Shown here in pieces: positions 3,709 to 28,228 of a stretch of 32,000 nucleotides of DNA. The notes below the pieces were generated by a model. The model was not told the origin of the DNA and did no database searches. It saw nothing but the letters and a program-made list of their open reading frames with translations. Position numbers and translations under genes: made by a program. Positions within the stretch are counted from its first letter, which is position 1. Each line of letters opens with the position of its first letter. The stretch covers positions 18,199 to 50,198 of the forward strand of contig CAYLJU010000005.1 in NCBI GenBank assembly GCA_964384115.1, written 5' to 3'. This DNA is from an uncultured Muribaculaceae bacterium (GTDB taxonomy: Bacteria; Bacillota_I; Bacilli_A; RF39; UBA660).

Positions 3709-3725
3709 CAAAATAAAAAAATATG

Positions 3726-4121: not shown

Positions 4122-4178
4122 TTAAAATCTCCTCTCGTAAAATACTTCAATAATATTGTACTATTTTTTTGAAAAAAA

Positions 4179-4226: not shown

Positions 4227-4547
4227 AATTTGAAATAAATTTGATATTATATTTAGTATATAACGCCAGTTATATTTTATTAGCAGTTTGGAGGTAGTAA
4301 AGTATGATAGATAAGATTAGGGTGATGTTTTCATCCTGACGATTCTAGGAGAGGCAGGTGAAATTTTGAATAAAAGGCAGTCTTCAGAACAAGGGTGTAG
4401 TAAAAAAATACTTATAAAGACAGATGAAAACGGTTTGCAATTATCTACCCAGTTGGATATAGAATCAACGATTCGCATTTTAGAAGTATGTCTGAGAAAT
4501 ATGAAGGAGAAGACATCACAAAATGTAGTACCAATTGGAAAGGAAAA

Positions 4548-4874
4548 ATGATAAAAATGTTCAAAGAAGAAAGAAATGAAGTAAGTGCAGTAAAAGAAGT
4601 AGAAGTAGTTTTAGCAGTATTTAGGGAATATCTTGATAAAAAAGAAGATATGCCTTATGAAGTAATGAAGTGTGTTGTACAAAAATTATATGATATTGAA
4701 AAAGATTACGATGCGGCTGTAAAAGATAATTCAGCATCTAATTCTTTGATAATAAAATTAGAAAGACTATATGAAGTAATTGGTACTATCGGTACTATTT
4801 CAATTGAAGACGAAGATAAATTAGATAAAACATTGAATATTCTAGGTGATTATGTTAAGTCAATAAAAGATTGA
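4548..4874 (+). CDS. hypothetical protein
   Basis: The ORF track starts at 4488, but the in-frame ATG at 4548 follows RBS GGAAAGGA. No recognisable domain. Confidence 0.5.
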   Translation: MIKMFKEERNEVSAVKEVEVVLAVFREYLDKKEDMPYEVMKCVVQKLYDIEKDYDAAVKDNSASNSLIIKLERLYEVIGTIGTISIEDEDKLDKTLNILGDYVKSIKD

Positions 4875-4990
4875 AAATAGTATCGGCTGTATAGATTTTC
4901 TATACAGCAATTTATTTGAAATAAAAAAATTATGGGTGTGGGTATTGACTTTTATAAAAATAAAGGTTATTATTTTAGTATAAGAGTTTA

Positions 4991-5003
4991 CTATCGTGAA
5001 CTA
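4991..5003 (+). promoter_or_regulatory. CTATCGTGAACTA box (copy 1), shares its core with the 4179-4226 operator
   Basis: An exact 13-mer is repeated at 5137-5149. Its core ATCGTGAAC is also the half-site of the inverted repeat at 4186-4194. Confidence 0.5.
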
Positions 5004-5065
5004 CTTAATATAATACGGAGGTGATTTATTATAGCTCGGAAATATTAATGTTTTAAGCAGTATTT

Positions 5066-5098
5066 AAGTAGTAGTAGTAAAATTAGGCAGTATAAAAT
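5066..5098 (+). promoter_or_regulatory. AAGTAGTAGTAGTAA...TTAGGCAGTATAAAAT motif (promoter-like), copy 1
   Basis: A 15-mer identical to 10409-10423, followed by TTAG(G)CAGTA and a -10-like TATAAAAT. It is intergenic, upstream of the 5172-7261 gene string. Confidence 0.45.
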
Positions 5099-5136
5099 GT
5101 AGTAAATATATTTTATTTTTTTAAAGTTGTAGTTTC

Positions 5137-5149
5137 CTATCGTGAACTA
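5137..5149 (+). promoter_or_regulatory. CTATCGTGAACTA box (copy 2)
   Basis: Exact repeat of 4991-5003, located 23 nt upstream of the GTG start at 5172. Confidence 0.5.
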
Positions 5150-5171
5150 TAAAACAAAAAAGTAAAGTGAG

Positions 5172-5360
5172 GTGGTAGTGATTTTTAAAGAAAAAGAAAG
5201 ATACCGTATATATAATACATTATCTGAAAATCACGGCTATTTTTTGACTATCATTAAAATAAAAAACAATATTGTTTATTATTTCTTTGATGGTGATGAT
5301 GAAGTACATTGGTTTGATGTTAGAAGTAATTTTGCAGTAGATTTAATAAAGGTAGTATAA
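5172..5360 (+). CDS. small hypothetical protein
   Basis: GTG start preceded by GAGGTGG. 62 aa with no motif. Confidence 0.4.
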   Translation: MVVIFKEKERYRIYNTLSENHGYFLTIIKIKNNIVYYFFDGDDEVHWFDVRSNFAVDLIKVV

Positions 5361-5399
5361 GACGTTAGATTCATCAGTTTTATGAGAGGAGCAACTATT

Positions 5400-5666
5400 A
5401 TGAATTTTTCTGATGAAAGGATTGTAATTCCTGAATGGATATTGCATCATCTAAGAAAATATGGTAATTGTTGCTGTGGAAGAGAAATAGTCAAAAAAAT
5501 AGGAAGGGATGAAATTTTACAGCTACTAAGGCAACTTGGTTTTCCTTGTATATTACGTATAGTTTATGATAATAAATTTTACAGACCAAAAAGGAAAGTA
5601 AAATATCCTCTTAATGCCTGTTATATTTTAGAAATTGAATGTGTAGTAAATAGTTATTTTATATGA
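5400..5666 (+). CDS. hypothetical Cys-rich protein, candidate antitoxin partner of MazF
   Basis: ATG at 5400 lies 8 nt after AGAGGAG (the track start at 5382 is less likely). Its stop overlaps the toxin start (ATGA). No MazE/AbrB-like sequence was recognised. Confidence 0.5.
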   Translation: MNFSDERIVIPEWILHHLRKYGNCCCGREIVKKIGRDEILQLLRQLGFPCILRIVYDNKFYRPKRKVKYPLNACYILEIECVVNSYFI

Positions 5667-6013
5667 GAAATTTTAAAAGAGGAAACGTATTTTTAGTTGA
5701 TTTAAAAGATGCGTATTCTCATGTTCAGTCAGGAAGACGACCTTGTTTGATTATTCAAAATAATTTAGGAAACACTTTTTCACCCAATTTAATTGTTGTG
5801 CCTTTAACTTCAAGAATAAAAAAACAAAATATGTCCGTTCATGTTATGACTGATGTTAATGAAATGGCATTATGTGAATGTATTTTAACTATTTCTAAAA
5901 AGCAAATCATTTATTATATTAAAACTTTAGATGAAAAAACTATGAAACTAATAGACAGAGCTTTATCCATATCGTTAGAAATTGAAAAGGAGGAAGAATT
6001 ATTAAAAAGTTAA
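5663..6013 (+). CDS. mazF: PemK/MazF-family type II toxin (endoribonuclease)
   Basis: RGNVFLVDL....HVQSGRRPCLIIQNNLGNTFSPNLIVVPLTSR matches the MazF/PemK signature (G.RP.l.lQnd.gN..sp.vIv.PiTs). Confidence 0.85.
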   Translation: MRNFKRGNVFLVDLKDAYSHVQSGRRPCLIIQNNLGNTFSPNLIVVPLTSRIKKQNMSVHVMTDVNEMALCECILTISKKQIIYYIKTLDEKTMKLIDRALSISLEIEKEEELLKS

Positions 6014-6018
6014 AGCAG

Positions 6019-6582
6019 ATGTATGAAGATTTGTGTAGTGGAAGTTCTGAGAATTATTGGCGTAGTGAAGGTAATAATAAGAGAATGAGAAGTTATCACA
6101 AATTATCTAAAATATTAAAAATAACCAAAAATATTTTACTTATAGGGTTAGCGATATATTGTGTTATTTTAGCAACAAATAGTATATTTTGTTTGTATGA
6201 TAAATTTATTTGTTGTAATACTGAAATTAGTATATTAAGTTTTATAGATTTTAGAAATTTTATTTTAGATATTTATATAGCAACTTTTATTATAGCTTTA
6301 TTTGTAGTTCTTTATTTCAGTAGAAAACAAAAGTATTCAATAAAACAAGTTATAAATGTTATTGTGAATAGTTTGTTATTTCTACCTGTTAGTAGTTTGT
6401 TAGTTTATAACTTTGTAGTATTAGAAAGTCTTATGAGTAGTTTTTATTTATTAGTAGTATTTGTAGTAGTGAATTTAATAATTAATCAATTAACTAATAG
6501 AATTGATAAATTATATGATGTAGCAGTAGGAAATATTGAAATGAATAGAAAAGGAGATAAGAAAGTATGCAAGGGAAAGTAA
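6019..6582 (+). CDS. membrane protein, unknown function
   Basis: Several long hydrophobic segments ([60 protein letters not shown]). Confidence 0.55.
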
Positions 6583-6800
6583 AATGGTTTAGTAGTGAGA
6601 AAGGATATGGATTTATATCTTGTGAAGGAGTATCAAATGATATTTATGTTCATTTTTCAGATATTCAAATGAGAGGTTTTAAATCATTAGAACAAAACGA
6701 TTTAGTTGAATTTGATTATGATGAAGAAATGCAAAAAGCAGTTAATGTAAGAAAAATAAATAATTCACTTGATTCAGATAATAATGTTGATAGTGAATAA
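6567..6800 (+). CDS. cold-shock domain protein (CspA family) with an acidic C-terminal tail
   Basis: [15 protein letters not shown] (RNP1-like) and VHFSDI (RNP2-like). The start overlaps the previous ORF by 16 nt. Confidence 0.85.
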
Positions 6801-6805
6801 CTAGA

Positions 6806-7261
6806 ATGACATTAGATAATACAGTATTAGAAGTAGATGTAGATAAAACAATAAAAAATGGTAAAAAAATTTATGAACAATATCAACCACTTGTTGAAAA
6901 AAGAATAAAACAGTTAAAGAAAAGTCAAATAAATTCTGCTAGTTTTATAGTTTTCTCAGGTGATAAAAATAGTAGAAATTCTAATGAAAAAAAGTTGATA
7001 GATGCACTTGCTTGGAATGATGATCAAATTGGTAGTTTTATAAAATTTGTATTAAATTTACAAAAAAGAGAAAAAGTAATTGGTGGTATTTTAAAGTGGA
7101 AATGTTTTTATGGGATGACTGATAAAGAAATTTCTGCTAAAATGAATATACCAGAAAGAACTATAAGATATAATAAATCTAAAGCATTTTATCAATTAGC
7201 TGTTTATTCAAATCAAGTTGAATTTATATATGAAAAAACTTATTATTTCTGTCTTGATTAA
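6806..7261 (+). CDS. sigma-70 region-4-like HTH protein (element-encoded sigma/transcription factor)
   Basis: C-terminal MTDKEISAKMNIPERTIRYNKSKAFYQLA resembles sigma region 4.2. Its size and context resemble the small sigma-like factors of ICEs and phages. Confidence 0.55.
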   Translation: MTLDNTVLEVDVDKTIKNGKKIYEQYQPLVEKRIKQLKKSQINSASFIVFSGDKNSRNSNEKKLIDALAWNDDQIGSFIKFVLNLQKREKVIGGILKWKCFYGMTDKEISAKMNIPERTIRYNKSKAFYQLAVYSNQVEFIYEKTYYFCLD

Positions 7262-7326: not shown

Positions 7327-8373
7327 ATGAAAAAGAAAATAGTATTAATAATTATAATTGTATTTATTGTATTCTTAGTAGGATTATATTTTCTAATATT
7401 TAAGAATACCGATAAAATTGTTTTAAATAAAGATGAGTTTGTTTTTGAACTCGGTGAAGATATTAGTGCAGATGTATCTTACTATCTAAAAGATGCTGAT
7501 TCTACTAAGAATATAAAAAGTTATAAGTTATCATCAGAAACATTAAAAATAGAAGGAAATAAATTTATTTTAGAAAATACTAATTATATTGAATTAGGTG
7601 AGTATAAAATAAATATTACATATAAAAAAATAAACAAAGAATTTTTTATAAAAGTTATTGATACTACTTCTCCAGAGTTTGAAGATTTTAAAGAAGTAAT
7701 TGAATTGGAAGAAACAACAGAAAATGTTGATTTAAAAAATTATTTTAAAGTTAAAGATCTAACAGAAACAAAAATTCAAATAGAAGGTGAGTATGATTTA
7801 ACAATACCAGGTGAATATAAAATAAATGTGATAGCTGTTGATTCAAGTAATAATGAAATTACAAAAGAATCAATAATTAAAGTGAAAGAAAAACCTGAGG
7901 AAACTTCTAAAGCAAATGATACAACAATAAACAAAACAGGAACACCAAAAGAAGAATCAAAATCATCTAATAGTACCCATTCTTCTAACAATACAACAAC
8001 AAACAAAACAGAAACTCCAGTTGTTGCATCACCAAGATATAGGAAAGATATTTCTGATGTTTATGTAGCGCAAGTGAACGCATATAGAAAAGCAAATGGT
8101 TTATCAGAATTACCAGTCACAACTGAAGCTCAAAATGAAGCTGATAGGAGAGCAAAAGAAATATCAACTTATTATTCTCATGATGGTGCAGGATATGGAT
8201 TTGGAGAAAATATAGGTGAGGGTTCAGTTGGAGTAGATTTTTTCACAGCATGGAAGAATAGCCCATCACATAATGCAGCAATGTTAAGAGAACAAAACAC
8301 AGCTATTGCTGCTAGTGTTTATGAAGTAAATAATCATTGGTATGCAGTAATATCTTTTAGAATGAATTATTAA
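7327..8373 (+). CDS. membrane-anchored/secreted CAP (SCP/PR-1, YkwD-like) domain protein
   Basis: N-terminal hydrophobic anchor, Ig-like repeats, a T/S/N-rich linker and a C-terminal CAP domain (NAYRKANGL..L, YSHDG, GENIG, WKNSPSHNAAML). Confidence 0.8.
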   Translation: MKKKIVLIIIIVFIVFLVGLYFLIFKNTDKIVLNKDEFVFELGEDISADVSYYLKDADSTKNIKSYKLSSETLKIEGNKFILENTNYIELGEYKINITYKKINKEFFIKVIDTTSPEFEDFKEVIELEETTENVDLKNYFKVKDLTETKIQIEGEYDLTIPGEYKINVIAVDSSNNEITKESIIKVKEKPEETSKANDTTINKTGTPKEESKSSNSTHSSNNTTTNKTETPVVASPRYRKDISDVYVAQVNAYRKANGLSELPVTTEAQNEADRRAKEISTYYSHDGAGYGFGENIGEGSVGVDFFTAWKNSPSHNAAMLREQNTAIAASVYEVNNHWYAVISFRMNY

Positions 8374-8413
8374 TTTATATGATATAATATTATTGTGCTA
8401 ACAGGAGGAAATC

Positions 8414-9067
8414 ATGATGGAAGAATTAATATTAAGACGATTAAAAATAACTAAAGAAGACTTAAATGAAAAGTATAAATTAATACAATATGATGAGTAC
8501 GTTGAGTTAATAAAAAAAATTTACAACAATATTTTAAATTTAGAAGTATTAGAAGAGTTGTTTAATAATGAATTAAATCTTAATTGTACAACAAATAATG
8601 AGTCAAATAAAATAGTTTTAATTCCTTCTAAATTACTTTTGATAATTGAAGGACAACAAGCTATTGATATAATAGAAAATTTTATAATTTACAATTATGA
8701 AGACAATAAACCTTTGTTTACTTGGGAAATTAAAAAGAGTTTATTATATGATGAAAAGCAAGAACAAATATTAGAAGAATTATATGAAACTAAAAATATA
8801 GAAGAGGTAAAAGAACCGTTTATAAAGCAAAACTATTTTATGTATAATGATGAAATTTATTTTCTATCTTCAGTTAGTTTATCTGCTTCAAATTTTGGAG
8901 AAAAGTATGAAATTATGATGTTTAAAAATAATATTAAACTAGCTAGTGATGAAATTGTTTATGAAGAACGTTTTTCATCTAAAGAAGAGTTATTAACCAC
9001 TTATAATGAGTTATTAAATAAGATAGTTAAGCAACCAGAAATTCTAAAAGATTATGTTGAACAGTAA
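8414..9067 (+). CDS. hypothetical protein
   Basis: 217-aa ORF with RBS AGGAGGA upstream. No motif recognised. Confidence 0.55.
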   Translation: MMEELILRRLKITKEDLNEKYKLIQYDEYVELIKKIYNNILNLEVLEELFNNELNLNCTTNNESNKIVLIPSKLLLIIEGQQAIDIIENFIIYNYEDNKPLFTWEIKKSLLYDEKQEQILEELYETKNIEEVKEPFIKQNYFMYNDEIYFLSSVSLSASNFGEKYEIMMFKNNIKLASDEIVYEERFSSKEELLTTYNELLNKIVKQPEILKDYVEQ

Positions 9068-9077
9068 AAAAAGATGA

Positions 9078-9344
9078 TCACTCATCTTTTTTATTTTCGT
9101 CATCCATAAGTTCTTCGTATCCGTCAAAAAATCTTCTAATGTCAAATTTGTATTTTTGTGCTAGAAAGAATAAGGTATCAAGTGAAATTCCAATATCATA
9201 GTTTGGACTTTCCACGTGCGAAATGAAACTTCTACTCATATCAGCATCCTCTGCCATTTTTTCTTGAGATTTACCAACGAATTCTTTTCTTATGGATTTC
9301 ATGTTTTTTCCTATTAGCGTGAAAAGTTCATAAGTGTCTTTCAT
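9078..9344 (-). CDS. XRE-family HTH regulator
   Basis: KSQEKMAEDADMSRSFISHVES is an HTH_3-like pattern. Confidence 0.7.
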   Translation of the reverse strand: MKDTYELFTLIGKNMKSIRKEFVGKSQEKMAEDADMSRSFISHVESPNYDIGISLDTLFFLAQKYKFDIRRFFDGYEELMDDENKKDE

Positions 9345-9486
9345 CTGCGAATACCTCCTAATACTATTTTATAGGAAATATCGTTTTAATACTGCGCCTT
9401 GATAAGGAGCAAAATAATTAATAAAAAATCAAAAAAGTATGTTATAATTTAATTAGCACGAAAAAAGAATACTTTTTAATGTATTC

Positions 9487-9750
9487 TTATCGTCTAGGAA
9501 TCCGACGATTTTCAACAAAATCTCGTTTTTCAAATAATTGAAATAACTCAACGTCAAGAACAGTTGCGATGTGACCGATATAGTCAATTCGTGTGTTTCT
9601 TTTAGCATTTTCAAGATTAGAAACGTATGTAGGTGTCGTTCCAAGTTTATCTGCGAAATCCTCTTGGGACCAACCATGTTCTAACCTGTAATACACAATA
9701 TTGTTAGCTAAAATCTCACGCGCATAAGGTTTTAGATTAATAGTCATCAC
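9487..9750 (-). CDS. XRE-family HTH regulator
   Basis: LEHGWSQEDFADKLGTTPTYVSNLENAKRN is a canonical HTH_3 pattern. Confidence 0.8.
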   Translation of the reverse strand: MMTINLKPYAREILANNIVYYRLEHGWSQEDFADKLGTTPTYVSNLENAKRNTRIDYIGHIATVLDVELFQLFEKRDFVENRRIPRR

Positions 9751-9910
9751 ATCCTTCCTTTCTTACTACTATTGTAATAAGTTTAGAGAAATCTAACCAT
9801 ACTAACTATGTAGTAAGTTATTAAATTATACTAGAAAGAAAAGCGATTATTTTGGAGAATTTTGTGCTAAAACTAAAAGGTAGATTAACAAATAAAAAAA
9901 GGAGCTAGAG

Positions 9911-10399
9911 ATGAAAAAAGAAAACTTAAATGAATATGTTAATAAAATGTCTGAAGTTTTAGACGAAAAATTTAAAATAATTACCTCAATAGAGTATCAT
10001 TATGATTTAGAAAAAATGATGTCTTTTATGGAAAAATTATCTAACGAAGAAGTTGAAACTGTATTAGAAAATTTGATTAATTCAAAATTAGAAGAAATTA
10101 AAAAATTAGGTGATGAAGATTTATTACAAAAAAATAATAAATTAGTAGATGAAGTCACTGAGTTCTTTTATGACAATGAAGAAGATGGTGTTAGTGGTGA
10201 AGAAGGCAGCTGTATTGCAACTGATCTTATTCTTAAAGTCTTCGGAAAAAATGGTCGTAAAATATCTCTTCCAATTAACATTGAATACATAAAAGACTAT
10301 TGTATTAGTAATGTAGTTGAGGAAAAAGATGTAAGAAAAACATTGATGTGGGTAGCTTTAGAGCTATCAACAGTAAGTTATTTTTTAAATAAAAAATAA
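9911..10399 (+). CDS. hypothetical acidic protein
   Basis: 162-aa ORF with RBS AGGAG upstream. No motif. Confidence 0.5.
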   Translation: MKKENLNEYVNKMSEVLDEKFKIITSIEYHYDLEKMMSFMEKLSNEEVETVLENLINSKLEEIKKLGDEDLLQKNNKLVDEVTEFFYDNEEDGVSGEEGSCIATDLILKVFGKNGRKISLPINIEYIKDYCISNVVEEKDVRKTLMWVALELSTVSYFLNKK

Positions 10400-10408
10400 T
10401 AACTTATG

Positions 10409-10440
10409 AAGTAGTAGTAGTAATTAGCAGTACCTATAAT
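10409..10440 (+). promoter_or_regulatory. AAGTAGTAGTAGTAA TTAGCAGTA cc TATAAT motif (promoter-like), copy 2, upstream of the DGR
   Basis: Same 15-mer plus TTAG(G)CAGTA as at 5066-5098. It ends in a consensus -10 TATAAT (10435-10440). Confidence 0.45.
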
Positions 10441-10522
10441 CTACCTTTTTAAGACACTTCTAATTTCTATGAAGTGTTTTATATTGAAGTAAAACGAGTT
10501 TTATATAGATAGGGGGAATATT

Positions 10523-11107
10523 ATGTTGCAAGTAAGTAGAAATAATAATTTAAAGATTCCCAAACAATTAGAAGATTGCAATGAATGTATTAATAGTAAT
10601 GAAGATAAAGTTGCTGTTAAACAAGCGTTGGCAACTGCACATGATGAAAAATTTAACAAAAAGAAAGTAATGCAATCTGTTGAGGAAGATAAAGAGTTGG
10701 AAAGAGTAAGTCAAATTCCTTCCAATGCTAACGATTTAATGGTAATAACAGTTGTAAAAAAATTAGGAGCATATATAATTGCAATTACAGAAAAGTCACC
10801 AGCTAAATATAGAGGTGTATTTGTTAATAGGATGCAGAATATGTGTTTAGATACTTTAGAAATCTTATTACAGGCAAATTTTGTTAGAATTGACTGTGAA
10901 GAGAGTAAGAGAAAAAGAGAAGAGTATCAAAAAGATGCTATTATCAAGTTAAAGATGTTAGGATACATTTCTATGGTTGCAGAGAATTCAGGTTGTATTT
11001 TAAAAAGACAATTCAAACAAATATCATTACAAATTGGAGAAGCAATTAATTTAGTAGCTGCTTGGAAGAAAAGTGATGATGATAGATGGAGGAAAAGAAC
11101 TAACTAA
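10523..11107 (+). CDS. avd: DGR accessory variability determinant (Avd, four-helix-bundle family) with an N-terminal extension
   Basis: The C-terminal ~120 aa fit the Avd pattern (KYRGVFVNRMQN..LDTLEILLQAN ... ISLQIGEAINLVAAWKKS) with a basic tail. It lies directly 5' of the TR and RT. Confidence 0.75.
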   Translation: MLQVSRNNNLKIPKQLEDCNECINSNEDKVAVKQALATAHDEKFNKKKVMQSVEEDKELERVSQIPSNANDLMVITVVKKLGAYIIAITEKSPAKYRGVFVNRMQNMCLDTLEILLQANFVRIDCEESKRKREEYQKDAIIKLKMLGYISMVAENSGCILKRQFKQISLQIGEAINLVAAWKKSDDDRWRKRTN

Positions 11108-11135
11108 TGGATTTTAAACCGAAAGGTTTTTAATT

Positions 11136-11485
11136 AAGTGGAAGATTTTATTCGTGGCTTGGTCATTTCAGTCGTCGGCTTAGATCGGTGACGGCGACGT
11201 CCGCGGCGTTAACAAAAATGGAAATAGAAACAACAACAACAGGTATAAACGTAATGGCGCCGTTCGCCCAGATTTGCTTTTGAAGAGATTAAATTATTAA
11301 TCTAAAAAACAGGTCAGAGAAATATATTTTAGGTAAAATATATCAGTATTTTAAAGCAAAGGGGTCTTCCACTTTTCTAATCGCTAAGAGAAATTAGTGC
11401 GATGGATAAATAAAAAGCACCCACACGAACAACGATAGGAATATCCTATTTTTGATAGTTATAAGGGGTGCTTTCTTTTATTTTG
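11136..11485 (+). ncRNA. DGR RNA (TR plus structured spacer); bounds approximate
   Basis: A non-coding stretch between avd and RT contains the TR and several hairpins. A 10-bp long-range pairing (11136-11145 with 11365-11374) brackets the TR. A 9-bp stem (11414-11422/11466-11474) plus U-tract lies just before the RT RBS. Confidence 0.6.
11186..11278 (+). repeat. DGR template repeat (TR)
   Basis: 93 nt align without gaps to 12830-12922 (offset 1644). All 10 mismatches are at TR adenines. A-rich AAC/AAT/AAA core between GC-rich flanks. Not within an ORF. Confidence 0.92.
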
Positions 11486-11501
11486 TAAGAGAGGAGCAAG
11501 A

Positions 11502-12521
11502 ATGAGATTAGAAGATATTTTTACTTTTGATAATTTATATAATGCACATAAAAAGTGTAGATGTTCTAAACAACAAAAAGGTGAAGTAATAAGGTTTGAA
11601 GTGAATCTTGCTGAAAACTTATACAAACTTAGAGAAGAAATAATAACAGGGAAATATAAAGTTGGCAAATATAAAGAATTTATAATTTATGAACCTAAAA
11701 AAAGATTGATAGAAGCATTACCATATAGAGATAGAGTATTACTTATGTGTTTCTGTGATAATTCTTTAATACCTAGATTAAATAAAAGGTTAATTAATGA
11801 TAATGTAGCTTGTAGAAAAGGTAAAGGAACACTATATGGAATGAACAGATTAGAATATTTTTTAAAAAAGGAATTTTTTAAAGGAAGAGATAATAACATT
11901 TATTATTTAAAATGTGATATAAGTAAATATTTTCCTAGCATAAATCACAAGATATTATTACAAAAATTAAAGAATATGGGTTTTTCCAAAGAAGAAATGT
12001 GGTTATTAGAAAAAATAATAAAAGAACAACCAAATAATGTAGATAAAGGATTACCATTGGGAAATCAAACAAGTCAATGGTTTGCATTATTATACCTGGA
12101 TAGAATTGACAGATTAATAAAAGAGGAATTGCAAATAAAAGGGTATGTGAGATATATGGATGATTTTATATTAATTCATAGAGATAAAAAATATTTGCAA
12201 TATTGTTTAAATAGAATAAACTTGGTATGTAATGAAGAATTAAAAATAGAACTAAATGCTAAAACACAAATTGGCAAAGTATATAATGGTATTGATTTTT
12301 TGGGATTTAGACACACTTTAACATCAACAGGTAAAGTTATTAGAAAGTTAAGATTATCTTCTAAAAAGAAGATTAGAAGGCATTTAAAGACATTACAAAA
12401 AATGAAAAACAAGGGTATTGTAGATGACAAATATGTTCAAATGAGAAAAAATGCTTTTTATAATCATGTATCTAATTCTGATGAAAATTATTTTAAGATG
12501 CGCCTTAAAGAGGAGCAATGA
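11502..12521 (+). CDS. DGR-type reverse transcriptase
   Basis: 339 aa. PKKRLIEALPYRDRVL, YYLKCDISKYFPSINH, the DGR hallmark LGNQTSQ (12057-12077), and the catalytic YMDD (12153-12164). The size and the adjacent TR fit a DGR RT, not a retron or group II intron RT. Confidence 0.95.
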   Translation: MRLEDIFTFDNLYNAHKKCRCSKQQKGEVIRFEVNLAENLYKLREEIITGKYKVGKYKEFIIYEPKKRLIEALPYRDRVLLMCFCDNSLIPRLNKRLINDNVACRKGKGTLYGMNRLEYFLKKEFFKGRDNNIYYLKCDISKYFPSINHKILLQKLKNMGFSKEEMWLLEKIIKEQPNNVDKGLPLGNQTSQWFALLYLDRIDRLIKEELQIKGYVRYMDDFILIHRDKKYLQYCLNRINLVCNEELKIELNAKTQIGKVYNGIDFLGFRHTLTSTGKVIRKLRLSSKKKIRRHLKTLQKMKNKGIVDDKYVQMRKNAFYNHVSNSDENYFKMRLKEEQ

Positions 12522-12608
12522 TGTAAAAAAATAAAATATTTGTAGAAAAAGTGTTAAATCTAAAGAAAAAACGCCTAAAATATGGTAAAATAATTATGGT
12601 GATGAAAG

Positions 12609-14531
12609 ATGTTTACTAATGAACAATTAACTTTACTAACTGAAGGTCAAGTATGGGGAAATGACCGTGAAAATCAGTTAGAAGTATTAAAAAAATATGG
12701 AACTAGGTCAGCAATAAGTGACTTAGTAGTATTAACAGGAGGATATTGTGAAGATTCTTGTACATATATGGCTCCTGATGATGATACGTTAAAAGGTAGA
12801 GTAGGATGGGCTTATACTCAATCTTCAGACGGTGACGGCGACGTCCGCGGCGTTAACGAAGATGGATATAGTCACTACAACTACAGGTATGGACGTAATG
12901 GCGCCGTTCGCCCAGCTTTGCTATCATCTTCTGTATTCTCTCAAATCTCCCCGAACAGAGTGAGGGGATACAACGGAACTGAAGAAGTTGAATATGGAGA
13001 GTATCCTCAATATGCTCCAGATGGAAGTACACAAAGAAGATTAGAAAGCGAATATCAAAATAGAAGATTACAAACAACTGGAAGAAATTATACTTTTGAT
13101 AGCACTCCATACGATAGATATTCTCAAGGTTTTCAAGCTGTGACTTATGATGAATATGAGTATAGTGGAAAAAAATACATTCGTGTAAAAGCAAATTCTG
13201 ATTACGGTGGAGATAGATTCAAATTATCAAATGGCGAACAATATAGAGATGGTGATTATGTTTGGGTAGAAGTATCACCAGTTAAATGGTTGATAGACGA
13301 TAGAACTAAAACTCTTGTTTCAAAAATAGGACTATTAGCTGGAATAAGATTCCATACAGATCAAAGAAGATATAATGGTGACTTTTCAACAACTGATATG
13401 AAAGAATATCTTGATAGATATATGTCAAAAGATTTGTTTCAAACAGCAACTTTGACAAGAACAGTTGATATGACACCAGAAGAAAAAAAGAAATTTGAAG
13501 AAGACCAAAGAATTGAAGAAAAAAGAAGAAATCCATACGGATTCAATTTTGGACAAGTAAGCGAAGAACAAATAATAAGAGGTGCAATTGAAAGTGGTGT
13601 TGCAGTATTCTTACATGGACAATCATCTGAAGGTAAGAGTGCTAGAGTAAAACAAATTGACCCTGATTGTGTAATAATATATCTTCGTAATGCTACACCA
13701 GAAAGTTTAAATGGTAAGAGCGTATATAATTCTGAAACAGGTGAAATGATTGATGTAAAACCAACTTGGTTGAAGAAATTAGAAGAAAGATGTGAAAAAG
13801 ATCCAGATAAATATCATATAGTTTTCTTGGATGAAATAACTAACGCATTACCTAGTATTCAAGGTATAGCATTTAATATAGTATTAGATAGAGAAGTTAA
13901 TGGAATATGGCAATTACCTGAAAATGCAAGAATAGTTGCAGCAGGTAATGATATGAAAGATTCACTTGCAGCAAATCAATTAGCAGAACCTTTATTTAAT
14001 AGATTTGCTCATGTTTATATTCAAACAACAGTAGAAAGTTGGCTACAATGGGCAAGTGAACATAATATTCATCCAGCAATATATGCTTATATAGCTTATA
14101 AGAAGGGTGAATCATTAAGAAGTAAATATGATGGTGAAAAACCAAATGCAGACCCAAGAAAATGGGAAATGGCATCTAAAATGTTATATGCGACAGGACA
14201 ACCTGAAATGTTAAGAGCATTAGTAGGTGAAGATATAACTAGAGAGTTCTGTCAATTCTGTAATCAAAGAGTTGTGACATTAGAAGATGTTTTAAGTGGA
14301 AATTATACAGAAAGAGATTTACAAATGAATACCTCTGAAAGATATGCGACTACTATTGGATTATCCCAAGTTAGTGAAGCAGATTTTGGTAAAGTAAGAG
14401 AGTTTGTTTCTGGTCTAGGACAAGAATTCTGTGCAGTATTTGATTCACTATGGACACATGGTGATGAAGCAAGAATGGAAGTTGTAGCAGAAGCAAGACT
14501 TGCAAGTACTAAAGGAGGTAGAAGAGTATAA
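12609..14531 (+). CDS. DGR target protein: N-terminal variable ligand-binding domain fused to a MoxR/AAA_5-like ATPase
   Basis: The VR encodes residues ~74-105 (DGDGDVRGVNEDGYSHYNYRYGRNGAVRPALL). Walker A GQSSEGKS (13617-13640), Walker B VFLDE (13821-13835), and the downstream ...AAGND...LFNRF pattern typical of AAA_5. Confidence 0.9.
   Translation: MFTNEQLTLLTEGQVWGNDRENQLEVLKKYGTRSAISDLVVLTGGYCEDSCTYMAPDDDTLKGRVGWAYTQSSDGDGDVRGVNEDGYSHYNYRYGRNGAVRPALLSSSVFSQISPNRVRGYNGTEEVEYGEYPQYAPDGSTQRRLESEYQNRRLQTTGRNYTFDSTPYDRYSQGFQAVTYDEYEYSGKKYIRVKANSDYGGDRFKLSNGEQYRDGDYVWVEVSPVKWLIDDRTKTLVSKIGLLAGIRFHTDQRRYNGDFSTTDMKEYLDRYMSKDLFQTATLTRTVDMTPEEKKKFEEDQRIEEKRRNPYGFNFGQVSEEQIIRGAIESGVAVFLHGQSSEGKSARVKQIDPDCVIIYLRNATPESLNGKSVYNSETGEMIDVKPTWLKKLEERCEKDPDKYHIVFLDEITNALPSIQGIAFNIVLDREVNGIWQLPENARIVAAGNDMKDSLAANQLAEPLFNRFAHVYIQTTVESWLQWASEHNIHPAIYAYIAYKKGESLRSKYDGEKPNADPRKWEMASKMLYATGQPEMLRALVGEDITREFCQFCNQRVVTLEDVLSGNYTERDLQMNTSERYATTIGLSQVSEADFGKVREFVSGLGQEFCAVFDSLWTHGDEARMEVVAEARLASTKGGRRV
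12830..12922 (+). repeat. DGR variable repeat (VR)
   Basis: Counterpart of the TR. The 10 A-to-N differences fall in 9 codons and are all nonsynonymous (K>E, N>D, N>Y, R>S, N>H, N>Y, N>Y, K>G, D>A). Confidence 0.92.
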
Positions 14532-14932
14532 TGAACGAAGCTAAAAGAGAATTGTTAATGGGTTATATTAGAAGTAATGTAGCTCCAATATTAATAGATT
14601 TTGTGGATGGTATAAATATTCCAAATAGTGTTATATTACCAGCAAATTGTAAAATGGAAGATTTAACTGGACATTACATAGAAACTGATTATGTACCACC
14701 AAAATGGATGAATCAAATATTTACAACAAATGCACCAACTATATTGGTTATTGATAAAATTGATAGTATTCCAAAAGATGAACAAACAAAGTTTGTAGAG
14801 ATATTAGAATATAGAAAAGTATCTACGTTTGAACTTCCAAAAAACACAGTAATTATAGTGACTGCAAAAGAAATAAATGAAGGAACAATTAATGAAGAAA
14901 TATATTCATTAGTTGCACATATAAAAGGATAG
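14531..14932 (+). CDS. small protein resembling the Walker-B-to-sensor half of an AAA_5 module (no P-loop)
   Basis: The start overlaps the upstream stop (TAATG). PTILVIDKIDSIPKDEQTKFVEILEYRKVSTFELPKNTVIIVTAKE parallels HIVFLDEITNALPSIQGIAFNIVLDREVNGIWQLPENARIVAAGN in the upstream ATPase. No GK[ST] motif. Confidence 0.6.
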   Translation: MNEAKRELLMGYIRSNVAPILIDFVDGINIPNSVILPANCKMEDLTGHYIETDYVPPKWMNQIFTTNAPTILVIDKIDSIPKDEQTKFVEILEYRKVSTFELPKNTVIIVTAKEINEGTINEEIYSLVAHIKG

Positions 14933-14935
14933 TTT

Positions 14936-16573
14936 ATGGGCTTTGATATAGAATCAATTAAAAGGAAAATGCTTGTAAAATATCCTTTTTTTGGAAGCGT
15001 AGTAGCTAATGTAGATTATAAGGCAAATAAAAGTGTACCAACAGCAGGAACAGACGGTAAAGTAATACATTATAATCCAGATTTCTTAGCAAATTTAAGT
15101 GTTGAAGAGCAAACTTTTATATTTGCTCATGAAGTGTGCCACATTGCCTTTAATCATATTTTGAGAAGTGAAGGAAAAGATCCTGCTATTTGGAATACGG
15201 CAACAGATGCTGTTATTAATGCTTTTTTAAAACGTGATGGTTTGAAAATGGTTGAAGGTGGAGTAGATATGGCAGATGCTATTAACTATGATGCTGAACA
15301 ATTATATGAAAAATTATTACAAGAAAAACAACAACAACAGCAACAACAAGGACAAGGAAATCAATCTCAACAGCAAAATGGACAACAAGGTCAACAAGGA
15401 CAGTCACAACAAAATCAAAGTGGTCAAGGTAGCTCTGGAGAGCAAAACCAACAAGAGCAATCACAAGATTCACAATCTCAATCTCAAAATGGTCAAGAAC
15501 AATCACAAAATTCTGAAAGTCAAAGTGGTCAAGAAGATAGTTCAGGTAGTGGAAGTTCATCTGGCTCTGATGGCGAAGAACAAGAAAAACAACAAAGTGG
15601 TAGTCAAAGTGGTGGAGGTTCTTCATCAGATTCTGATTCACAAGAAAAGAAGAATGATAGTTCTTCAGGAAGTGGAGATTCATCTTCGCAAGAAGAAAAA
15701 CAAGACGTTGGACATGATACACATAGTATGTGGGAAGATGCAATAAAAAAACATAAAGAAGAACAAGCAAAAAAAGATAAAAAAGAAAGTTTATTAGATA
15801 AATTATTTAATAGAGATAAACAAGAAAAAACACCAAAACAAAGCGAAATTGAAAAGAAACAAGAAGAAATTGAACAACTAGGAGAAAAAGAAGCGTTTAA
15901 GAAAAATTTAGAGGAAAAGAAAAAAGAACTTGAAGAATTAAAAAAAGCATTGTCGCAACAAGCTATGGGTCCAGGTTCTTCAACAAATAGAGATGTTAGA
16001 AATATAACAGATATAGGAAGAGCAAAACCATTAATAGATTGGCGTTATGTATTAAGAGAAGCAATAAAATATGATGTTGATTGGTCATATAGAAATGCAA
16101 CGATTGAAGATGGTGTAATAAGTGCAAATTTAGAAGAACAACCGATGCCAGAAACTGAGATTGTATTAGATACAAGTGGTTCAATTAATGAAACACTATT
16201 AAAAAATTTCTTGAGAGAATGTAAAAATATATTACAACATTCAAGATTAAAGGTAGGATGTTTTGATACAGAGTTTTATGGATTTCACGAAATAAGAACA
16301 GAAGAAGATATTGAAAATATGAGATTTGAAGGTGGAGGAGGAACTGACTTTGATGTAGCAGTTGGTGCTTTCTCAAGAAGGGTAGAAAATAAGATAATCT
16401 TTACAGATGGTGATGCTTATATGCCTGAAATGCCACTTGATGCAATTTGGATAGTATTTGGTGGAATTGAAATAAATCCAAAAGGTGGAAAAGTAATACA
16501 AATTGATGATGAGCAACTTGATAGGTTATATTCATACGAAATGGATACTCAATCAAAAGGTAGATCAAGATAG
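14936..16573 (+). CDS. metallopeptidase-like (HExxH) / vWA-like two-domain protein (DUF2201-type partner of MoxR-like ATPases)
   Basis: HEVCH at 15128-15142, a Q/S/G/E-rich low-complexity linker (about 15320-15705), a K/E-rich coiled coil, and a C-terminal vWA with MIDAS DTSGS (16169-16183), GGGTDF and FTDGD. Confidence 0.85.
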   Translation: MGFDIESIKRKMLVKYPFFGSVVANVDYKANKSVPTAGTDGKVIHYNPDFLANLSVEEQTFIFAHEVCHIAFNHILRSEGKDPAIWNTATDAVINAFLKRDGLKMVEGGVDMADAINYDAEQLYEKLLQEKQQQQQQQGQGNQSQQQNGQQGQQGQSQQNQSGQGSSGEQNQQEQSQDSQSQSQNGQEQSQNSESQSGQEDSSGSGSSSGSDGEEQEKQQSGSQSGGGSSSDSDSQEKKNDSSSGSGDSSSQEEKQDVGHDTHSMWEDAIKKHKEEQAKKDKKESLLDKLFNRDKQEKTPKQSEIEKKQEEIEQLGEKEAFKKNLEEKKKELEELKKALSQQAMGPGSSTNRDVRNITDIGRAKPLIDWRYVLREAIKYDVDWSYRNATIEDGVISANLEEQPMPETEIVLDTSGSINETLLKNFLRECKNILQHSRLKVGCFDTEFYGFHEIRTEEDIENMRFEGGGGTDFDVAVGAFSRRVENKIIFTDGDAYMPEMPLDAIWIVFGGIEINPKGGKVIQIDDEQLDRLYSYEMDTQSKGRSR

Positions 16574-16584
16574 ATAAAAAGAGG

Positions 16585-16612
16585 TTTAGAAATAGATTCT
16601 AAATCTTTTTTT
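16585..16612 (+). terminator. rho-independent terminator ending the DGR-target operon
   Basis: Stem tttagaa/ttctaaa with loop ataga, then tc and a T7 run. Confidence 0.55.
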
Positions 16613-16708
16613 GATGCAAATTAGATAAAACAAGGTAGAAATGGCTTTGTTATTAGGAAAATAAAGGATTTTTATGTTATAATTAATATATAATGAGATG
16701 GTGATTTT

Positions 16709-16936
16709 ATGGTTGTAGAAGAGTTGAAGAAAAAGTTTGAAACTGAAAAAGAAGTAAAATTTAAATTATATAGTTTGGAATATATAATTCAAGAAGAAGA
16801 TAGCAAAGTAATTATATATCCGTTGTTATATAGTTCAAAAAAGAATGTTTATAATTCATTTGATGAAGTTTTATATAACTATACGATTTACAATGAAAGT
16901 ATTATTGATAATTTAGATAGATTAATAATACTTTGA
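16709..16936 (+). CDS. small hypothetical protein
   Basis: 75-aa ORF. No motif. Confidence 0.4.
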   Translation: MVVEELKKKFETEKEVKFKLYSLEYIIQEEDSKVIIYPLLYSSKKNVYNSFDEVLYNYTIYNESIIDNLDRLIIL

Positions 16937-16945
16937 GGAGGACGT

Positions 16946-17503
16946 ATGAATAAATTAGTAAATACAGATTCAACCATAAATTTAGAATATGTGAAAATAG
17001 ATAAAGATAATTTTGAAATTGGGTACAACATTCAAAAACAGATTTGGGAAGATGAACCAGATTACGAAAATTTCAAAAGCAAAGCAAATAGCAATGATGC
17101 TGATAATATGTCTTGGTTAGTTTTTTATAACAATATGCCTATTGGTATTACTGGAGTTTTTACTGAAGACTTTGATGGAGAAACAATATGGTTAGATTGG
17201 TACGGAATATTACCTGAATATAGAAAACAAGGATTAGGTAAAAAAATATTATTAGATACAATTGAATATTGTAAGAAATTAGATAAATATGAGTATTTGA
17301 GATTAGATACAACATATTGGGGTGGAAGACCTGCAATTTCTTTGTATGATAGTGTTATGACATTTAAAGAAAAGTATGTTGCTGAAGATACAGAAGTTTC
17401 TCACAATTGGTGGATTTATACATATAGTTTGAAAGGTAAAAAAGAATACTGGAACAATAGAATTATTGGATTAAGTGATTATTATAATAACTTAAAAGAT
17501 TAG
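16946..17503 (+). CDS. GNAT-family N-acetyltransferase
   Basis: Acetyl-CoA-binding motif A: YGILPEYRKQGLGKKIL. Confidence 0.8.
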   Translation: MNKLVNTDSTINLEYVKIDKDNFEIGYNIQKQIWEDEPDYENFKSKANSNDADNMSWLVFYNNMPIGITGVFTEDFDGETIWLDWYGILPEYRKQGLGKKILLDTIEYCKKLDKYEYLRLDTTYWGGRPAISLYDSVMTFKEKYVAEDTEVSHNWWIYTYSLKGKKEYWNNRIIGLSDYYNNLKD

Positions 17504-24736: not shown

Positions 24737-24831
24737 GCGTCCAAAATCTCTATTTTTGCTTGAAAAGAAAGGGGATGATAGCAATTTAAAATCTTTTTTA
24801 TTAGTAGTACCAATGATTGAAAGGAGAACGT

Positions 24832-27800
24832 ATGAAGAAAAAAATTGGTAGGAAGTTAAAAAAAGTTTTAAACGTAGTAATGGTAGTAGGAATTTTAATG
24901 TCATCTTTTCCAATTACTCCATTTATACCTAAAGTAAATGCTTTAGCTAGTGTATCAGGAGATAAGATAATTGAAACAGCTATGACTTATCAAGATTGGG
25001 GATATTGGGAAGTTGGTACTTGTACAGGATTAGTCACTCGTACATTAAATAAGTTAGGAATAGGGCAATCTGTTGTAGGTATTCATCCTTACGATATAGA
25101 TAAACCTCAACCAGAGGGTACAGGTGCAAGGTATGCTCCAGATAAAATGTATCAAAATGCTTTAAATCATCCAGAAGATGCACAATACATTTGGTCAGGA
25201 TATGTTAAAGATGTAAAAGCAAATGCTCATTTATTTGAGAATGGAGATTTAGTTTTACAACGTCCAGAAGATAAAGCAAATTATAATGGTAGTGGACACG
25301 CAGCATTAATTCATATATATAATGGGAATATATCTATGTATGGTGCTAATGGTGAAAAGATGGGTATTGGTGATGCAGTAATGGCAACAGGTATTGCCAC
25401 AAGAGGTATTTCATTTAATGTAAATTCAATGGATTATATTCATGTATTTAGATTAACTAAAGCAGAACCAGAATACGCAACAACAACATCAGAAAAATCT
25501 GCACAAGAAGTTGTAGATGTATCATTCTATAAAACTGATCTTGAAACAGGTAAACCTTTATCTGGAGTGGAAGTAGAATTTTATCGTGACGATGTTAAGT
25601 TTGCGACAGGGATAACTGGAGAAGATGGGTATGCTAAAGTCACTTCAACAACAACTTATACATCTTCATCATCACCAAAAACTTATGTCACTAACTGGGA
25701 TGATTTAGGTGAAGAAGAGCAAGCTGAAGTAGATGAAAGAGGTGCTTATCATAATTTAGTGGAAGCACAAGCTGCTGCTGATTCTGAAGCATTAAAGAGT
25801 GCGACTGAAAAAGCATCACAAACTCATAAGTATAGTGTAGTAGAAGTAAAAACTAAAACTAAATATTGGTTAAATCCAGATAATACTACTGATAGTGATT
25901 CTGCAACAGGTAGTGGAAGTATAAGTCTATCTTTATCAAATGAAAGAGTGACAGCTACGGCAATTTTGTTTAAGGAAGATGCCGACGTAGGTTATGCACA
26001 AAATGAAGCTGAAATTGATGGCGCTTTGTATGGATTATACGCTAATGAAAATATTTTAGATCCAGCAGACGGTTCTATTATATATAATAAAGATGAAGAA
26101 ATAACTAGAGTTCGTATAGAAAATGGACAAGCACAGGTTGATGGGCTTTACTTAGGTAGCTATTACTGGCTTGAATTGACTAGTGGAACTGGATATAAAC
26201 TTAATAAGAATAAAGAGGTGTTTACTGTAAATTATTCATCTCAAAATGTAAAAGTAGTGACTTCTAAATCTGTATCAAAAGAAGAAGTAATTACAGCAGA
26301 TTTTGAAATAGAAAAAATTATTACTTCTGGTGATGAATCAGAAATCGTACAAAAAGAAGAGGGAGCAGAATTCATTGTTGTTGCTAAAAAGTATGTTGAT
26401 AAGTATGGTGATATAGAAACTGCTTGGGAACACAGAGATGAATTTACTGACAAAGAGTATGATAAATTAGTCACTAATAAAAATGGTTATGACAAGTCAA
26501 AACAATTGGCTTATGGAAGTTATGTTGGAAAACAAATCAAAGGTAAAATGGATACAGAATTAGTAGAAAACACATTCACTTTTACCGTATCAAAAGAAAA
26601 CCAAGATACAATTAAATATATTATTAACAATCGTCTATTTACTTCTTATGTTAAACTTCAAAAAGTAGATTCAGAAACAGGTAAATTAATCACAGCATCT
26701 AACACAACATTTAAAATTAAAAATGCTGATACTGGTGAATATTTAACTCAAAAAGTTGCTGATACTACTTATGATACTTGGAAGACATCTGATAAAGGAA
26801 TGATTCAATTACCACTAGAAGTAAAAGCTGGAAATTGGATACTTGAAGAAGTAGAAAGTCCTGATAATTATTTAATCAATAAAGAAGGTGTAAGTTTCAA
26901 AGTCACTAACACTAACATTATTGAAACAGATTCTGATGGTGACCCTCTATTAACAGTTGTGATGGAAGATAAAGCTGTAAAAGGTCAAATCAAGGTAGAA
27001 AAATCTGGAGAAGTATTAGTAGGTGTAGAAAAAGATGAAAATGGTAATATTCAATTTATTTATGAAGAAAGACCATTAGCAGATATGGTTGTTTATGTTC
27101 AAGCAGATGAAGATATATTAGATCCTGCTGATAATTCAGTTATCTATAAAAAAGGAGAAGTAGTAGATGTTATTACAACATCTTATACAGGTGAAGGTGT
27201 ATCAAAACTATTACCACTTGGAAATTATATAGTGTATGAATACCAAAGTCCAAATGGAATGTTAATTGATACAACTCAATATAAAGTGTCTTTAGATTTT
27301 ATAGATAATGAAACAGAAGTTGTTATGGAAACTATTTCAATAACAAATGAACGTCAAAAGGTAGAAATAGATTTAACTAAATTAGATTTAGATACTGATA
27401 CAGCACTTGAAGGTGTTGTTTTTGGTTTATATGCAAAAAAGGATATATATGCTCAATATCGTCCAGCTATGGAAAGAAGTTTATATAGACCTGTATTAGT
27501 TGAAGAGGGAACTTTAATTGAAACTGTTGTATCAGATGAAAATGGTAAAGTTCATTTTTCTGCTGATTTACCTATTTCTTTTGATGATGAAACTTATTTT
27601 GAAATTCGCGAATTAAAATCAAAAGAAGGGTATTATGAGAGTAGCGAAATTTTTTCAATAGATACAAAGTACAAAGGACAAAATATTGAAAAAATATCTA
27701 ATAGTCAAACAATCTATAACGAAATAATAAAAAATTATATTTTAGTTAATAAAGTTGACTCATTAACATTAGAAAATATAATTAGTAAAGACTTTAAATT

Positions 27801-28203: not shown

Positions 28204-28228
28204 TTCTATTTATTGAAAGGAGCAAACT

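Follow-up and report, generated by a model that had tools for sequence, protein, structure and literature searches.

What does a diversity-generating retroelement (DGR) diversify when its target is predicted to stay in the cytoplasm and to carry an ATP-driven engine? This question is raised by a locus in the window, the whole 32,000-nt stretch of DNA analysed here, which comes from an uncultured Muribaculaceae bacterium (GTDB lineage Bacilli_A; RF39; UBA660; assembly GCA_964384115.1, contig CAYLJU010000005.1, positions 18,199 to 50,198). In this locus a DGR rewrites codons in the N-terminal head of a 640-residue protein with an AAA+ ATPase as its C-terminal half, and two partner genes follow closely. 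DGR scaffolds are ligand-binding surfaces. We read the locus as a receptor-programmable AAA+/protease conflict system, the specificity of which would be re-drawn by the DGR within a self-contained chromosomal cassette, and we give this reading a probability of roughly one half.

Anatomy of the DGR and its target

The elements of the DGR and the genes downstream of it are as follows.

10523..11107, plus strand: avd, DGR accessory protein, 194 aa
11186..11278, plus strand: template repeat (TR), 93 nt with 31 adenines, between avd and the reverse transcriptase (RT) gene
11279..11501, plus strand: spacer between TR and RT, probably part of the DGR RNA
11502..12521, plus strand: DGR RT, 339 aa, YMDD motif
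12609..14531, plus strand: DGR target, 640 aa, consisting of a hypervariable head, a linker helix and an AAA+ ATPase
12609..13463, plus strand: head domain of the target, aa 1 to about 285, a family of its own
12830..12922, plus strand: variable repeat (VR), aa 74-105 of the target, hypervariable residues 83-85, 87-95 and 97
13566..14531, plus strand: AAA+ ATPase module of the target, aa ~320-640, AAA_5/midasin/MoxR-like
14531..14932, plus strand: p133, 133 aa, a P-loop-deleted paralogue of the ATPase alpha/beta core
14936..16573, plus strand: DUF2201 protein, 545 aa, with an HExxH metallopeptidase-like domain, a linker and a von Willebrand factor A (vWA)-like domain

All are co-directional, in the order avd, TR, RT and then the open reading frames (ORFs) of 640, 133 and 545 aa. 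The TR/VR pair is the sole long direct repeat of the region (89% identity over 93 nt), and its mismatches fall at TR adenines in 10 of 10 cases (hypergeometric P = 5.5e-6 for 31 A in 93 nt). The TR codons behind the VR changes are AAC, AAT, AAA and AGA, and the GC content of the VR is 0.56, against 0.34 across the target gene. The RT matches RVT_1 (1.8e-16), phrog_1423 (1.8e-102) and the RT model of PADLOC (6.8e-35). Avd matches phrog_3206, annotated as the Avd protein of DGRs (1.6e-13), and Pfam bAvd (0.0019); its match to NCBIfam DivGenRetAVD (3.2e-5) lies under the curated cutoff of that model. Thus, avd, TR, RT and VR form a DGR, and the ORFs, the repeat and the A-only mismatches bear out the anatomy and the VR position put forward in the original prediction.

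The spacer between TR and RT folds with a minimum free energy of -45.3 kcal/mol (z = -2.76 relative to shuffled sequences) and contains, at ~11417-11485, a nested hairpin with a T-run after it. The 3' ~150 nt of the spacer are 84% conserved in L008, a related locus with a deleted TR. By analogy with the Bordetella phage paradigm, the spacer may have a role in priming. No GC-rich hairpin of the type associated with the initiation of mutagenic homing (IMH) site was found downstream of the VR, and a scan for promoters and terminators returned signals no better than chance in the AT-rich DNA of the window.

The DGR is active in nature

To follow variation along the target we built an alignment of 121 sequences, namely the window protein and the 120 relatives that matched it best in the database, all full length and 75-96% identical. 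Column entropy peaks at residues 83-85, 89-91, 95 and 97, which correspond exactly to TR codons that contain A, and is near zero in the ATPase half of the 121 sequences. When homologues were grouped by identity outside residues 83-97, sets of 9, 7, 6 and 4 proteins shared the same backbone, and the VR differs in every member of these sets. Indeed, a metagenomic 640-aa copy from another sample, which falls in the same 90% cluster as the window protein (P0274), departs from it at nine residues (85, 87-92, 95 and 97), all encoded by A-templated VR codons, and shows 0 differences in the other 631 residues. Differences confined to the VR in this way are what mutagenic homing should leave behind in natural populations, and we conclude that the DGR is active in nature.

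An alternative is that the DGR is a relic, with the TR/VR similarity a fossil and the target no longer mutated. Decay of the DGR is frequent in the family, as the eroded loci described below illustrate. In the window, however, the TR/VR mismatches are all at A, and avd, the RT with its YMDD motif and the target are all intact, while the sister protein P0274 contradicts a relic directly. We consider this alternative scarcely credible.

The ATPase half and its partner proteins

The ATPase half matches phrog_1297, annotated as ATPase, over aa 321-611 (2.6e-48) and contains a Walker A motif (GQSSEGKS), a Walker B motif (VFLDE), a sensor-1 motif (AAGN) and the Arg of NRF. Residues G33, G38, K39, S40, D104, E105, N143 and R161 (ATPase-half numbering) are invariant in 25 sequences that include two phage ATPases. 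The Pfam AAA_5 match to the target is sub-threshold (16.2 bits, cutoff 22, E = 0.011) and covers only aa 401-466, and the best solved relative in a profile search of solved structures is the midasin AAA domain (E = 5.6e-4). We therefore label the module AAA_5/midasin/MoxR-like and do not claim formal MoxR membership. Accordingly, the description of this half as an intact ATPase of the MoxR/AAA_5 type stands as regards the intact AAA+ motifs and the pairing with a vWA protein; MoxR, given the sub-threshold AAA_5 match, remains a resemblance only. Homologues of the ATPase occur in 774 phage records, including N4-like and PA5oct-like jumbo phages, and genes of the phrog_1314 type lie within a few kb of these phage homologues.

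The two downstream genes are those anticipated, a P-loop-less AAA fragment and a DUF2201 protein with HExxH and vWA domains, and the predicted spacing is exact: the target stop and the p133 start overlap by 1 nt (TAATG), and a gap of 3 nt separates p133 from the DUF2201 gene. The p133 protein aligns with the ATPase profile (hhalign E = 3.2e-5) with a gap exactly at the Walker A/P-loop. It retains a Walker-B-like hhhhD and the next strand, with DK rather than DE at Walker B. The DUF2201 protein matches DUF2201_N at 3e-34 (119.3 bits, cutoff 23.2) and the DUF2201 domain at 2e-14 (54.2 bits, cutoff 26.4), the pair PF13203 and PF09967, and also matches phrog_1314 (1e-67). Its HExxH metallopeptidase-like domain spans aa 9-189 (nt 14960-15502) and its vWA-like domain, with a metal ion-dependent adhesion site (MIDAS) motif DTSGS, aa 409-524 (nt 16160-16507). 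Across 59 DUF2201 homologues the HExxH and the MIDAS (DTSGS, T, D) are conserved and the linker is not. This vWA protein carries no VR in the window; the VR sits in the ATPase gene. Taken together, the motif conservation shows a constant, by prediction catalytically intact AAA+ engine with a conserved putative vWA-zinc-peptidase partner.

The linker of the DUF2201 protein is a low-complexity stretch rich in Q, S, G and E with internal direct repeats (aa ~125-340, nt 15299-15950), and the DUF2201 homologues range in length from 355 to 761 aa.

The head domain and its localization

The target has 2853 relatives at E <= 1e-3, and a full-library HMMER search resolves the head family into 1629 clusters at 50% identity. 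Head residues 1-300, modelled by AlphaFold2 with 89 diverse relatives aligned, gave a confident structure (predicted local distance difference test (pLDDT) 95.5, predicted template modelling score (pTM) 0.90), in which the VR occupies a beta-hairpin (strands 79-82 and 88-91) and the stretch directly behind it. A full-length model computed from 27 sequences of 75-96% identity had a pLDDT of 43.5 and was discarded as unusable. The single full-length target sequence gave no match in a search of the PDB.

A relationship of the head to DUF6273 was examined by several routes. Head aa 21-147 pair with positions 71-211 of a DUF6273 family from Faecalibacterium phages (hhalign E = 1.9e-4, probability 48%); the pairing covers the W..T/WWL and VRPAL elements, and the VR ends its half of the domain with a G-x-R-P-A/V-L motif. 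The window head itself has no match to Pfam DUF6273, and weak Pfam matches were obtained for 4 of 90 head-family members. For one head homologue the match is limited to positions 77-168 of the DUF6273 profile (21.7 bits, cutoff 23.5), and the sole match above the cutoff runs across the point where two tandem heads of P0131 meet. These data weakly suggest that the VR-bearing first ~105 aa of the head are related to the C-terminal half of DUF6273. We also considered a circular permutation, in which the N-terminal half of DUF6273 would be represented by head aa ~215-280 and its C-terminal half by aa 1-105. The above-threshold match across the tandem-head junction of P0131 favours such an arrangement. 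However, nine artificially permuted heads gave no full-length DUF6273 match and hhalign recovered the C-terminal-half match only, and we do not claim a permutation.

Heads also occur in other settings. P0131 (818 aa) has no ATPase and consists of two tandem heads and then six DUF4116 repeats, and P0203 (863 aa), also without an ATPase, joins a head to BspA-type leucine-rich repeats (LRR_5). Genuine standalone heads exist (P0253, P0263), although the count of standalone heads is an overestimate, many being genes cut by contig ends (for example P0176). The head found no match in 50,697 phage records (INPHARED), in 72,556 plasmids (PLSDB) or in one pattern scan of IMG/VR. The idea that it was taken directly from a phage receptor-binding protein thus finds no support in these three collections.

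Localization was assessed from the highest 19-residue Kyte-Doolittle mean. No hydrophobic segment was detected by this measure in the target (1.13), the 133-aa protein (1.32) or the DUF2201 protein (0.93); for comparison, a membrane protein encoded in the window reaches 3.46. All three are therefore predicted to be cytoplasmic. The scan agrees with the earlier reading that signal peptides and transmembrane segments are absent, and the proposal that the DGR acts on the N-terminal domain of a predicted cytoplasmic protein, with the VR at aa 74-105, holds.

A different possibility is that the protein, or a cleaved head, gets outside by lysis or by unrecognized export and there binds external ligands. 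Most cellular DGR targets are indeed surface proteins (PMC8144416), the DUF6273 targets of gut phages are receptor-binding proteins (PMC10743442), and the peptidase could in principle free the head. Yet the Kyte-Doolittle scan found neither a signal peptide nor a transmembrane segment in the three proteins, the head forms one polypeptide with an ATP-dependent engine whose catalytic motifs are invariant, and no conserved secretion genes lie nearby. An extracellular binder is highly unlikely on these grounds.

Distribution, DGR decay and tandem paralogues

Related loci were collected from one genome per species, which gave 75 species-level loci; 78 loci in all were compared. Full-length head-ATPase proteins, 47-79% identical, occur in 75 species. 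The carriers are gut metagenome-assembled genomes (MAGs) labelled Bacilli, 'Tenericutes', CAG:417, CAG:605 and Candidatus Faecisoma, together with Clostridia, among them Zhenpiania and Lentihominibacter; a complete chromosome of 1.46 Mb is one of the carriers. The target and the DUF2201 gene are both present in 68 of the 78 loci, where they abut or overlap, and p133 is found in 51 of the 78, all from Bacilli, being missing from Clostridia-type loci.

The DGR itself is far less constant. A full RT lies directly upstream of the target in 11 of the 75 species-level loci, nine of which have a TR/VR pair with mismatches almost all at A. No RT is present in 37 of the 75 that have at least 2.5 kb of upstream sequence, and avd, TR and RT consequently do not always co-occur with the module, a co-occurrence that the original prediction had raised. 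Several loci preserve stages of decay upstream of a target that is itself intact. Locus L008 has lost the TR and kept the spacer, L007 and L015 have a truncated RT, and pieces of the RT (48-107 aa) are left in L014, L018, L019, L037 and L048. In L030, 7 of 18 TR/VR mismatches are not at A.

Locus L030 also holds, at 7989-17451, four nearly identical tandem copies of the target beside the DGR, with the same VR and differences at the extreme termini. This array could be a recent amplification accompanied by a decaying DGR, or an assembly artefact.

In many RT-less Bacilli loci the segment equivalent to the VR is GC-rich and A-poor (GC 0.45-0.56 versus ~0.32 for the gene), a composition that suggests past targeting or targeting in trans. 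Two to five tandem target paralogues are present in the RT-less loci L032, L033, L040 and L055. In all four loci the ATPase halves of these paralogues vary at far fewer columns than the heads, mostly 0-2 per 20 in L032, L033 and L040; in the heads up to 17-19 columns per 20 vary. Standalone head genes lie beside two modules in L082. Tandem arrays and standalone heads amount to a germline alternative to DGR diversification. The head is thus diversified by three routes, namely the DGR, tandem paralogues and extra head genes.

Proposed function

The pattern of diversification points to a rapidly changing ligand, most plausibly an invader protein, and hence to a conflict system. In such a system the active DGR would go on changing roughly twelve surface codons of the head, which sits at the front of a cytoplasmic AAA+ ATPase. 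The head would be the ligand-recognition module and, being related to DUF6273, probably a lectin-like scaffold such as DGRs diversify in other systems. The AAA_5/midasin-like ATPase would serve as the constant engine, probably ring-forming and possibly incorporating p133. The DUF2201 protein may dock through its vWA/MIDAS, as vWA partners of MoxR ATPases do, and would supply the zinc peptidase; vWA proteins bridge MoxR-type rings to substrates via the MIDAS site (PMC9976466, PMC13036017). A head variant would then bind a molecule in the cytoplasm, for which a protein brought in by a phage or mobile element is the most plausible candidate, and ATP-driven remodelling would present this target to the peptidase or switch the peptidase on. 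What we infer in this scheme is that the head binds a ligand, that the three proteins are physically coupled, that the output is proteolytic and that the system acts in conflict or defence.

A bolder version would make the module an 'evolvable protease', in which the DGR writes substrate specificities into the head of an AAA+ unfoldase and captured invader proteins are passed to the vWA-zinc-peptidase. It would amount to an anticipatory, protein-directed immunity of small-genome gut Bacilli, with paralogue arrays and standalone heads as the alternative repertoire of RT-less lineages. We put this version forward tentatively and regard it as rather doubtful.

Several observations weigh against a conflict system. 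Most of the homologous loci are without a DGR, as the 37 RT-less loci illustrate, and hypermutation is therefore not essential to the function of the module. Lytic phages commonly encode the ATPase/DUF2201 pair, for which a part in virion assembly has been put forward there, and the engine is thus not in itself a defence device. PADLOC gave no significant match for the target, p133 or the DUF2201 protein (a mad8 match, E = 0.027, was rejected as insignificant), and the 147 flanking neighbours sampled are mostly housekeeping genes and include only two integrases and two IstB genes, with no clear defence-island signal. As to the putative lectin fold of the head, Foldseek searches of the PDB and BFVD with the confident head model returned no neighbour at E < 0.07 (template modelling scores ~0.1, at noise level), and head profiles found no solved relative in the PDB. 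Finally, the ligand, the complex and the proteolysis are parts of the model that we infer.

The phage homology also raises the possibility of a chaperone or assembly machine that matures a cellular complex and has a head that adapts to a rapidly evolving client. The homologous phage ATPase/DUF2201 pair has been read as a chaperone-cochaperone pair (PMC7824862), remodelling or metal insertion is the usual task of MoxR-vWA pairs (PMC9976466, PMC13036017), and other such pairs, NorQD, CbbQO and RavA-ViaA, act in this manner. The genes that flank the module, which differ by species, are mostly housekeeping genes (147 neighbours sampled), in keeping with this possibility. A housekeeping client, however, needs no DGR hypermutation, tandem head paralogues or standalone heads. 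Moreover, no conserved candidate client gene adjoins the module, and related MAGs carry it sporadically, not as a core feature. A chaperone function is quite unlikely in our assessment, and we retain the receptor-programmable conflict system as the preferred reading.

Genomic surroundings of the cassette

Three further genes lie between the cassette and the sequence upstream of it.

9078..9344, minus strand: XRE-type helix-turn-helix (HTH) regulator, 88 aa, Pfam HTH_19 4.1e-8
9487..9750, minus strand: second XRE-type HTH regulator, 87 aa, phrog_8 1.1e-12, divergent from the DGR operon
9911..10399, plus strand: orf162, directly upstream of avd

Homologues of the 88-aa regulator (79-83% identity) were found only in DGR-bearing loci, those of the 87-aa regulator (85-86% identity) in DGR-bearing loci, and those of orf162 (64-68% identity) solely in loci with avd and RT. 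Both regulators and orf162 accompany only the DGR-bearing version of the cassette. The product of orf162 matched no family in Pfam, PHROGs or NCBIfam, and may be a DGR accessory gene, since it is found only alongside avd and RT.

Upstream of these genes, at 2920-7261, runs a mobile-element-like series of genes, which suggests the remnant of an element. It comprises a replication-initiator/DnaD-like gene (2920-3708), a repressor on the minus strand (3726-4121), a MazF toxin (5663-6013) and a transcriptional activator (6806-7261). It is thus conceivable that the cassette serves a mobile element or its remnant, in exclusion, counter-defence or addiction, as a selfish or offensive device with a DGR that tracks variable host or rival proteins. 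Consistent with this idea are the upstream gene run itself, the two XRE regulators that the cassette has for its own, module contexts that are unrelated between species, and the membership of the ATPase and the DUF2201 protein in the phage families phrog_1297 and phrog_1314. By contrast, the head lacks a match in the phage records, the plasmids and the one IMG/VR pattern scan described above, integrases are rare beside the module (2 of 147 neighbours), and there are no structural or transfer genes nearby. We judge a service to an element unlikely, and favour the conflict system proposed above.

The remaining genes of the window are of other kinds. Tandem seryl-tRNA synthetase genes lie at 183-1421 and 1577-2860 (412 and 427 aa, Seryl_tRNA_N and class II core domain). 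Just upstream of the cassette, at 7327-8373, is a gene for a membrane-anchored CAP/SCP-domain protein of 348 aa with a strongly hydrophobic N-terminus. Two very large ORFs lie at 24817-28203 (1128 aa) and 28229-31795 (1188 aa), of which the first weakly resembles a cell-wall surface anchor protein (E = 3.3e-5). An assignment of the ORFs within 24817-31795 as rpoB/rpoC was rejected, as neither matches any solved RNA polymerase subunit.

Comparison with known systems

Kaur et al. 2020 (PMC7159879) and Doré et al. 2024 (PMC10907252) described lectin-like sensors that are diversified by DGRs and belong to MoxR-vWA (VMAP ternary) and STAND systems of the cytoplasm. The likeness of the window module to the VMAP ternary systems is considerable. 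In each, a MoxR-like AAA+ ATPase of the cytoplasm goes with a vWA protein and with a peptidase activity, the last predicted here, and a DGR hypermutates a sensor domain that is lectin-like in the VMAP ternary systems and probably so in the window; the concept of an intracellular antigen sensor coupled to an NTPase is common to the two. The differences lie in the parts and in their order. In the VMAP ternary systems the FGS/CLec domain with the VR forms the C-terminus of either the vWA protein or a separate target, whereas in the window the VR-bearing domain is at the N-terminus of the ATPase. The VMAP protein is absent from the window cassette, in which the third component is the P-loop-less ATPase paralogue and no further neighbour is conserved. 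The VMAP ternary effector is trypsin- or caspase-like, and the window peptidase is a DUF2201_N zinc peptidase fused to vWA. The hosts also differ, being multicellular cyanobacteria, actinobacteria and Chromatiales in the one case and small-genome gut Bacilli and Clostridia in the other. As it has no VMAP protein and its VR is not on the vWA protein, the window system is not a member of the VMAP ternary family, but it probably works in a related way.

DGR targets of candidate phyla radiation (CPR) bacteria include lectin-like or unclassified VRs joined to an AAA ATPase, according to the summary of earlier work given in Doré et al. 2024 (PMC10907252), and Wu et al. 2018 listed 'Midasin' UVR4 DGR targets in CPR bacteria (PMC5758913). 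As in the window, these CPR/DPANN targets, so far as that summary describes them, combine a DGR variable region and an AAA-type ATPase in one polypeptide. The ATPase of Wu et al. was matched to midasin (PMC5758913), also the best solved relative of the window ATPase. In the account of Doré et al., sensing is in the C-terminal region and the ATPase acts as transducer, the reverse of the order in the window. That account reports no DUF2201 partner, and phyla and habitat differ; it is by this description that the CPR/DPANN targets are set apart from the window module.

Among phages, the counterpart is the jumbo-phage pair of a MoxR ATPase and a vWA protein with an N-terminal metallopeptidase (Iyer et al. 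2021, PMC7824862; phrog_1297 and phrog_1314), both members of which are homologous to the ATPase and the DUF2201 protein of the window. In N4-like and jumbo phages no more than a few kb separate the two genes. The phage ATPases, however, are ~340-370 aa long and have neither head nor DGR, p133 was not seen with the pair, and the role proposed for it is virion assembly and processing. The DUF6273 targets of gut phages, which include the tentaclins (PMC10743442; bioRxiv 10.1101/2024.10.15.618418), resemble the head rather than the engine. They have the same type of VR motif, ending in ...G(V/I)RPAL, and in the tentaclins the VR is likewise borne by an N-terminal globular domain of a multidomain target and forms a beta-hairpin with flanking loops. 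Unlike the window target, the DUF6273 phage targets are virion receptor-binding proteins with immunoglobulin-like domains. The window head, for its part, fails the Pfam DUF6273 model, matches the C-terminal half only, has ~180 further residues and is without homologues in the phage records searched. The DGR-diversified STAND/NLR-like NTPases (PMC10907252) share a predicted cytoplasmic tripartite design of variable sensor, NTPase and effector. Their NTPase is NACHT or nSTAND1, their sensor is C-terminal and their effector is fused or adaptor-recruited, whereas the window NTPase is AAA_5-like.

Thus, the original claim that this is not a described architecture holds in part. DGR-diversified MoxR-vWA, STAND and AAA sensors are already published, and the window module is therefore a new architecture of a proposed idea and not a new category. 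The exact combination and orientation, on the other hand, were not found in the open-access papers and preprints searched. The family offers natural controls, for it includes modules whose DGR is live, others whose DGR is decaying, others that have tandem head paralogues and, among phages, modules that lack a head altogether. A head that proved re-targetable would be a candidate scaffold for programmable intracellular binders or proteolysis. If our reading is correct, the host range of DGR-diversified intracellular NTPase sensors would extend from multicellular bacteria and CPR/DPANN to abundant uncultured gut Bacilli and Clostridia of humans and animals. The module would also be the most compact version so far, with sensor and engine in one polypeptide and one dedicated peptidase partner, so that what cytoplasmic DGR targets recognize, and with what consequence, could be tested with three proteins. 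What distinguishes it from the known systems is the set of a head at the ATPase N-terminus, a P-loop-less paralogue as third gene, a DUF2201 partner and hosts among gut Bacilli and Clostridia.

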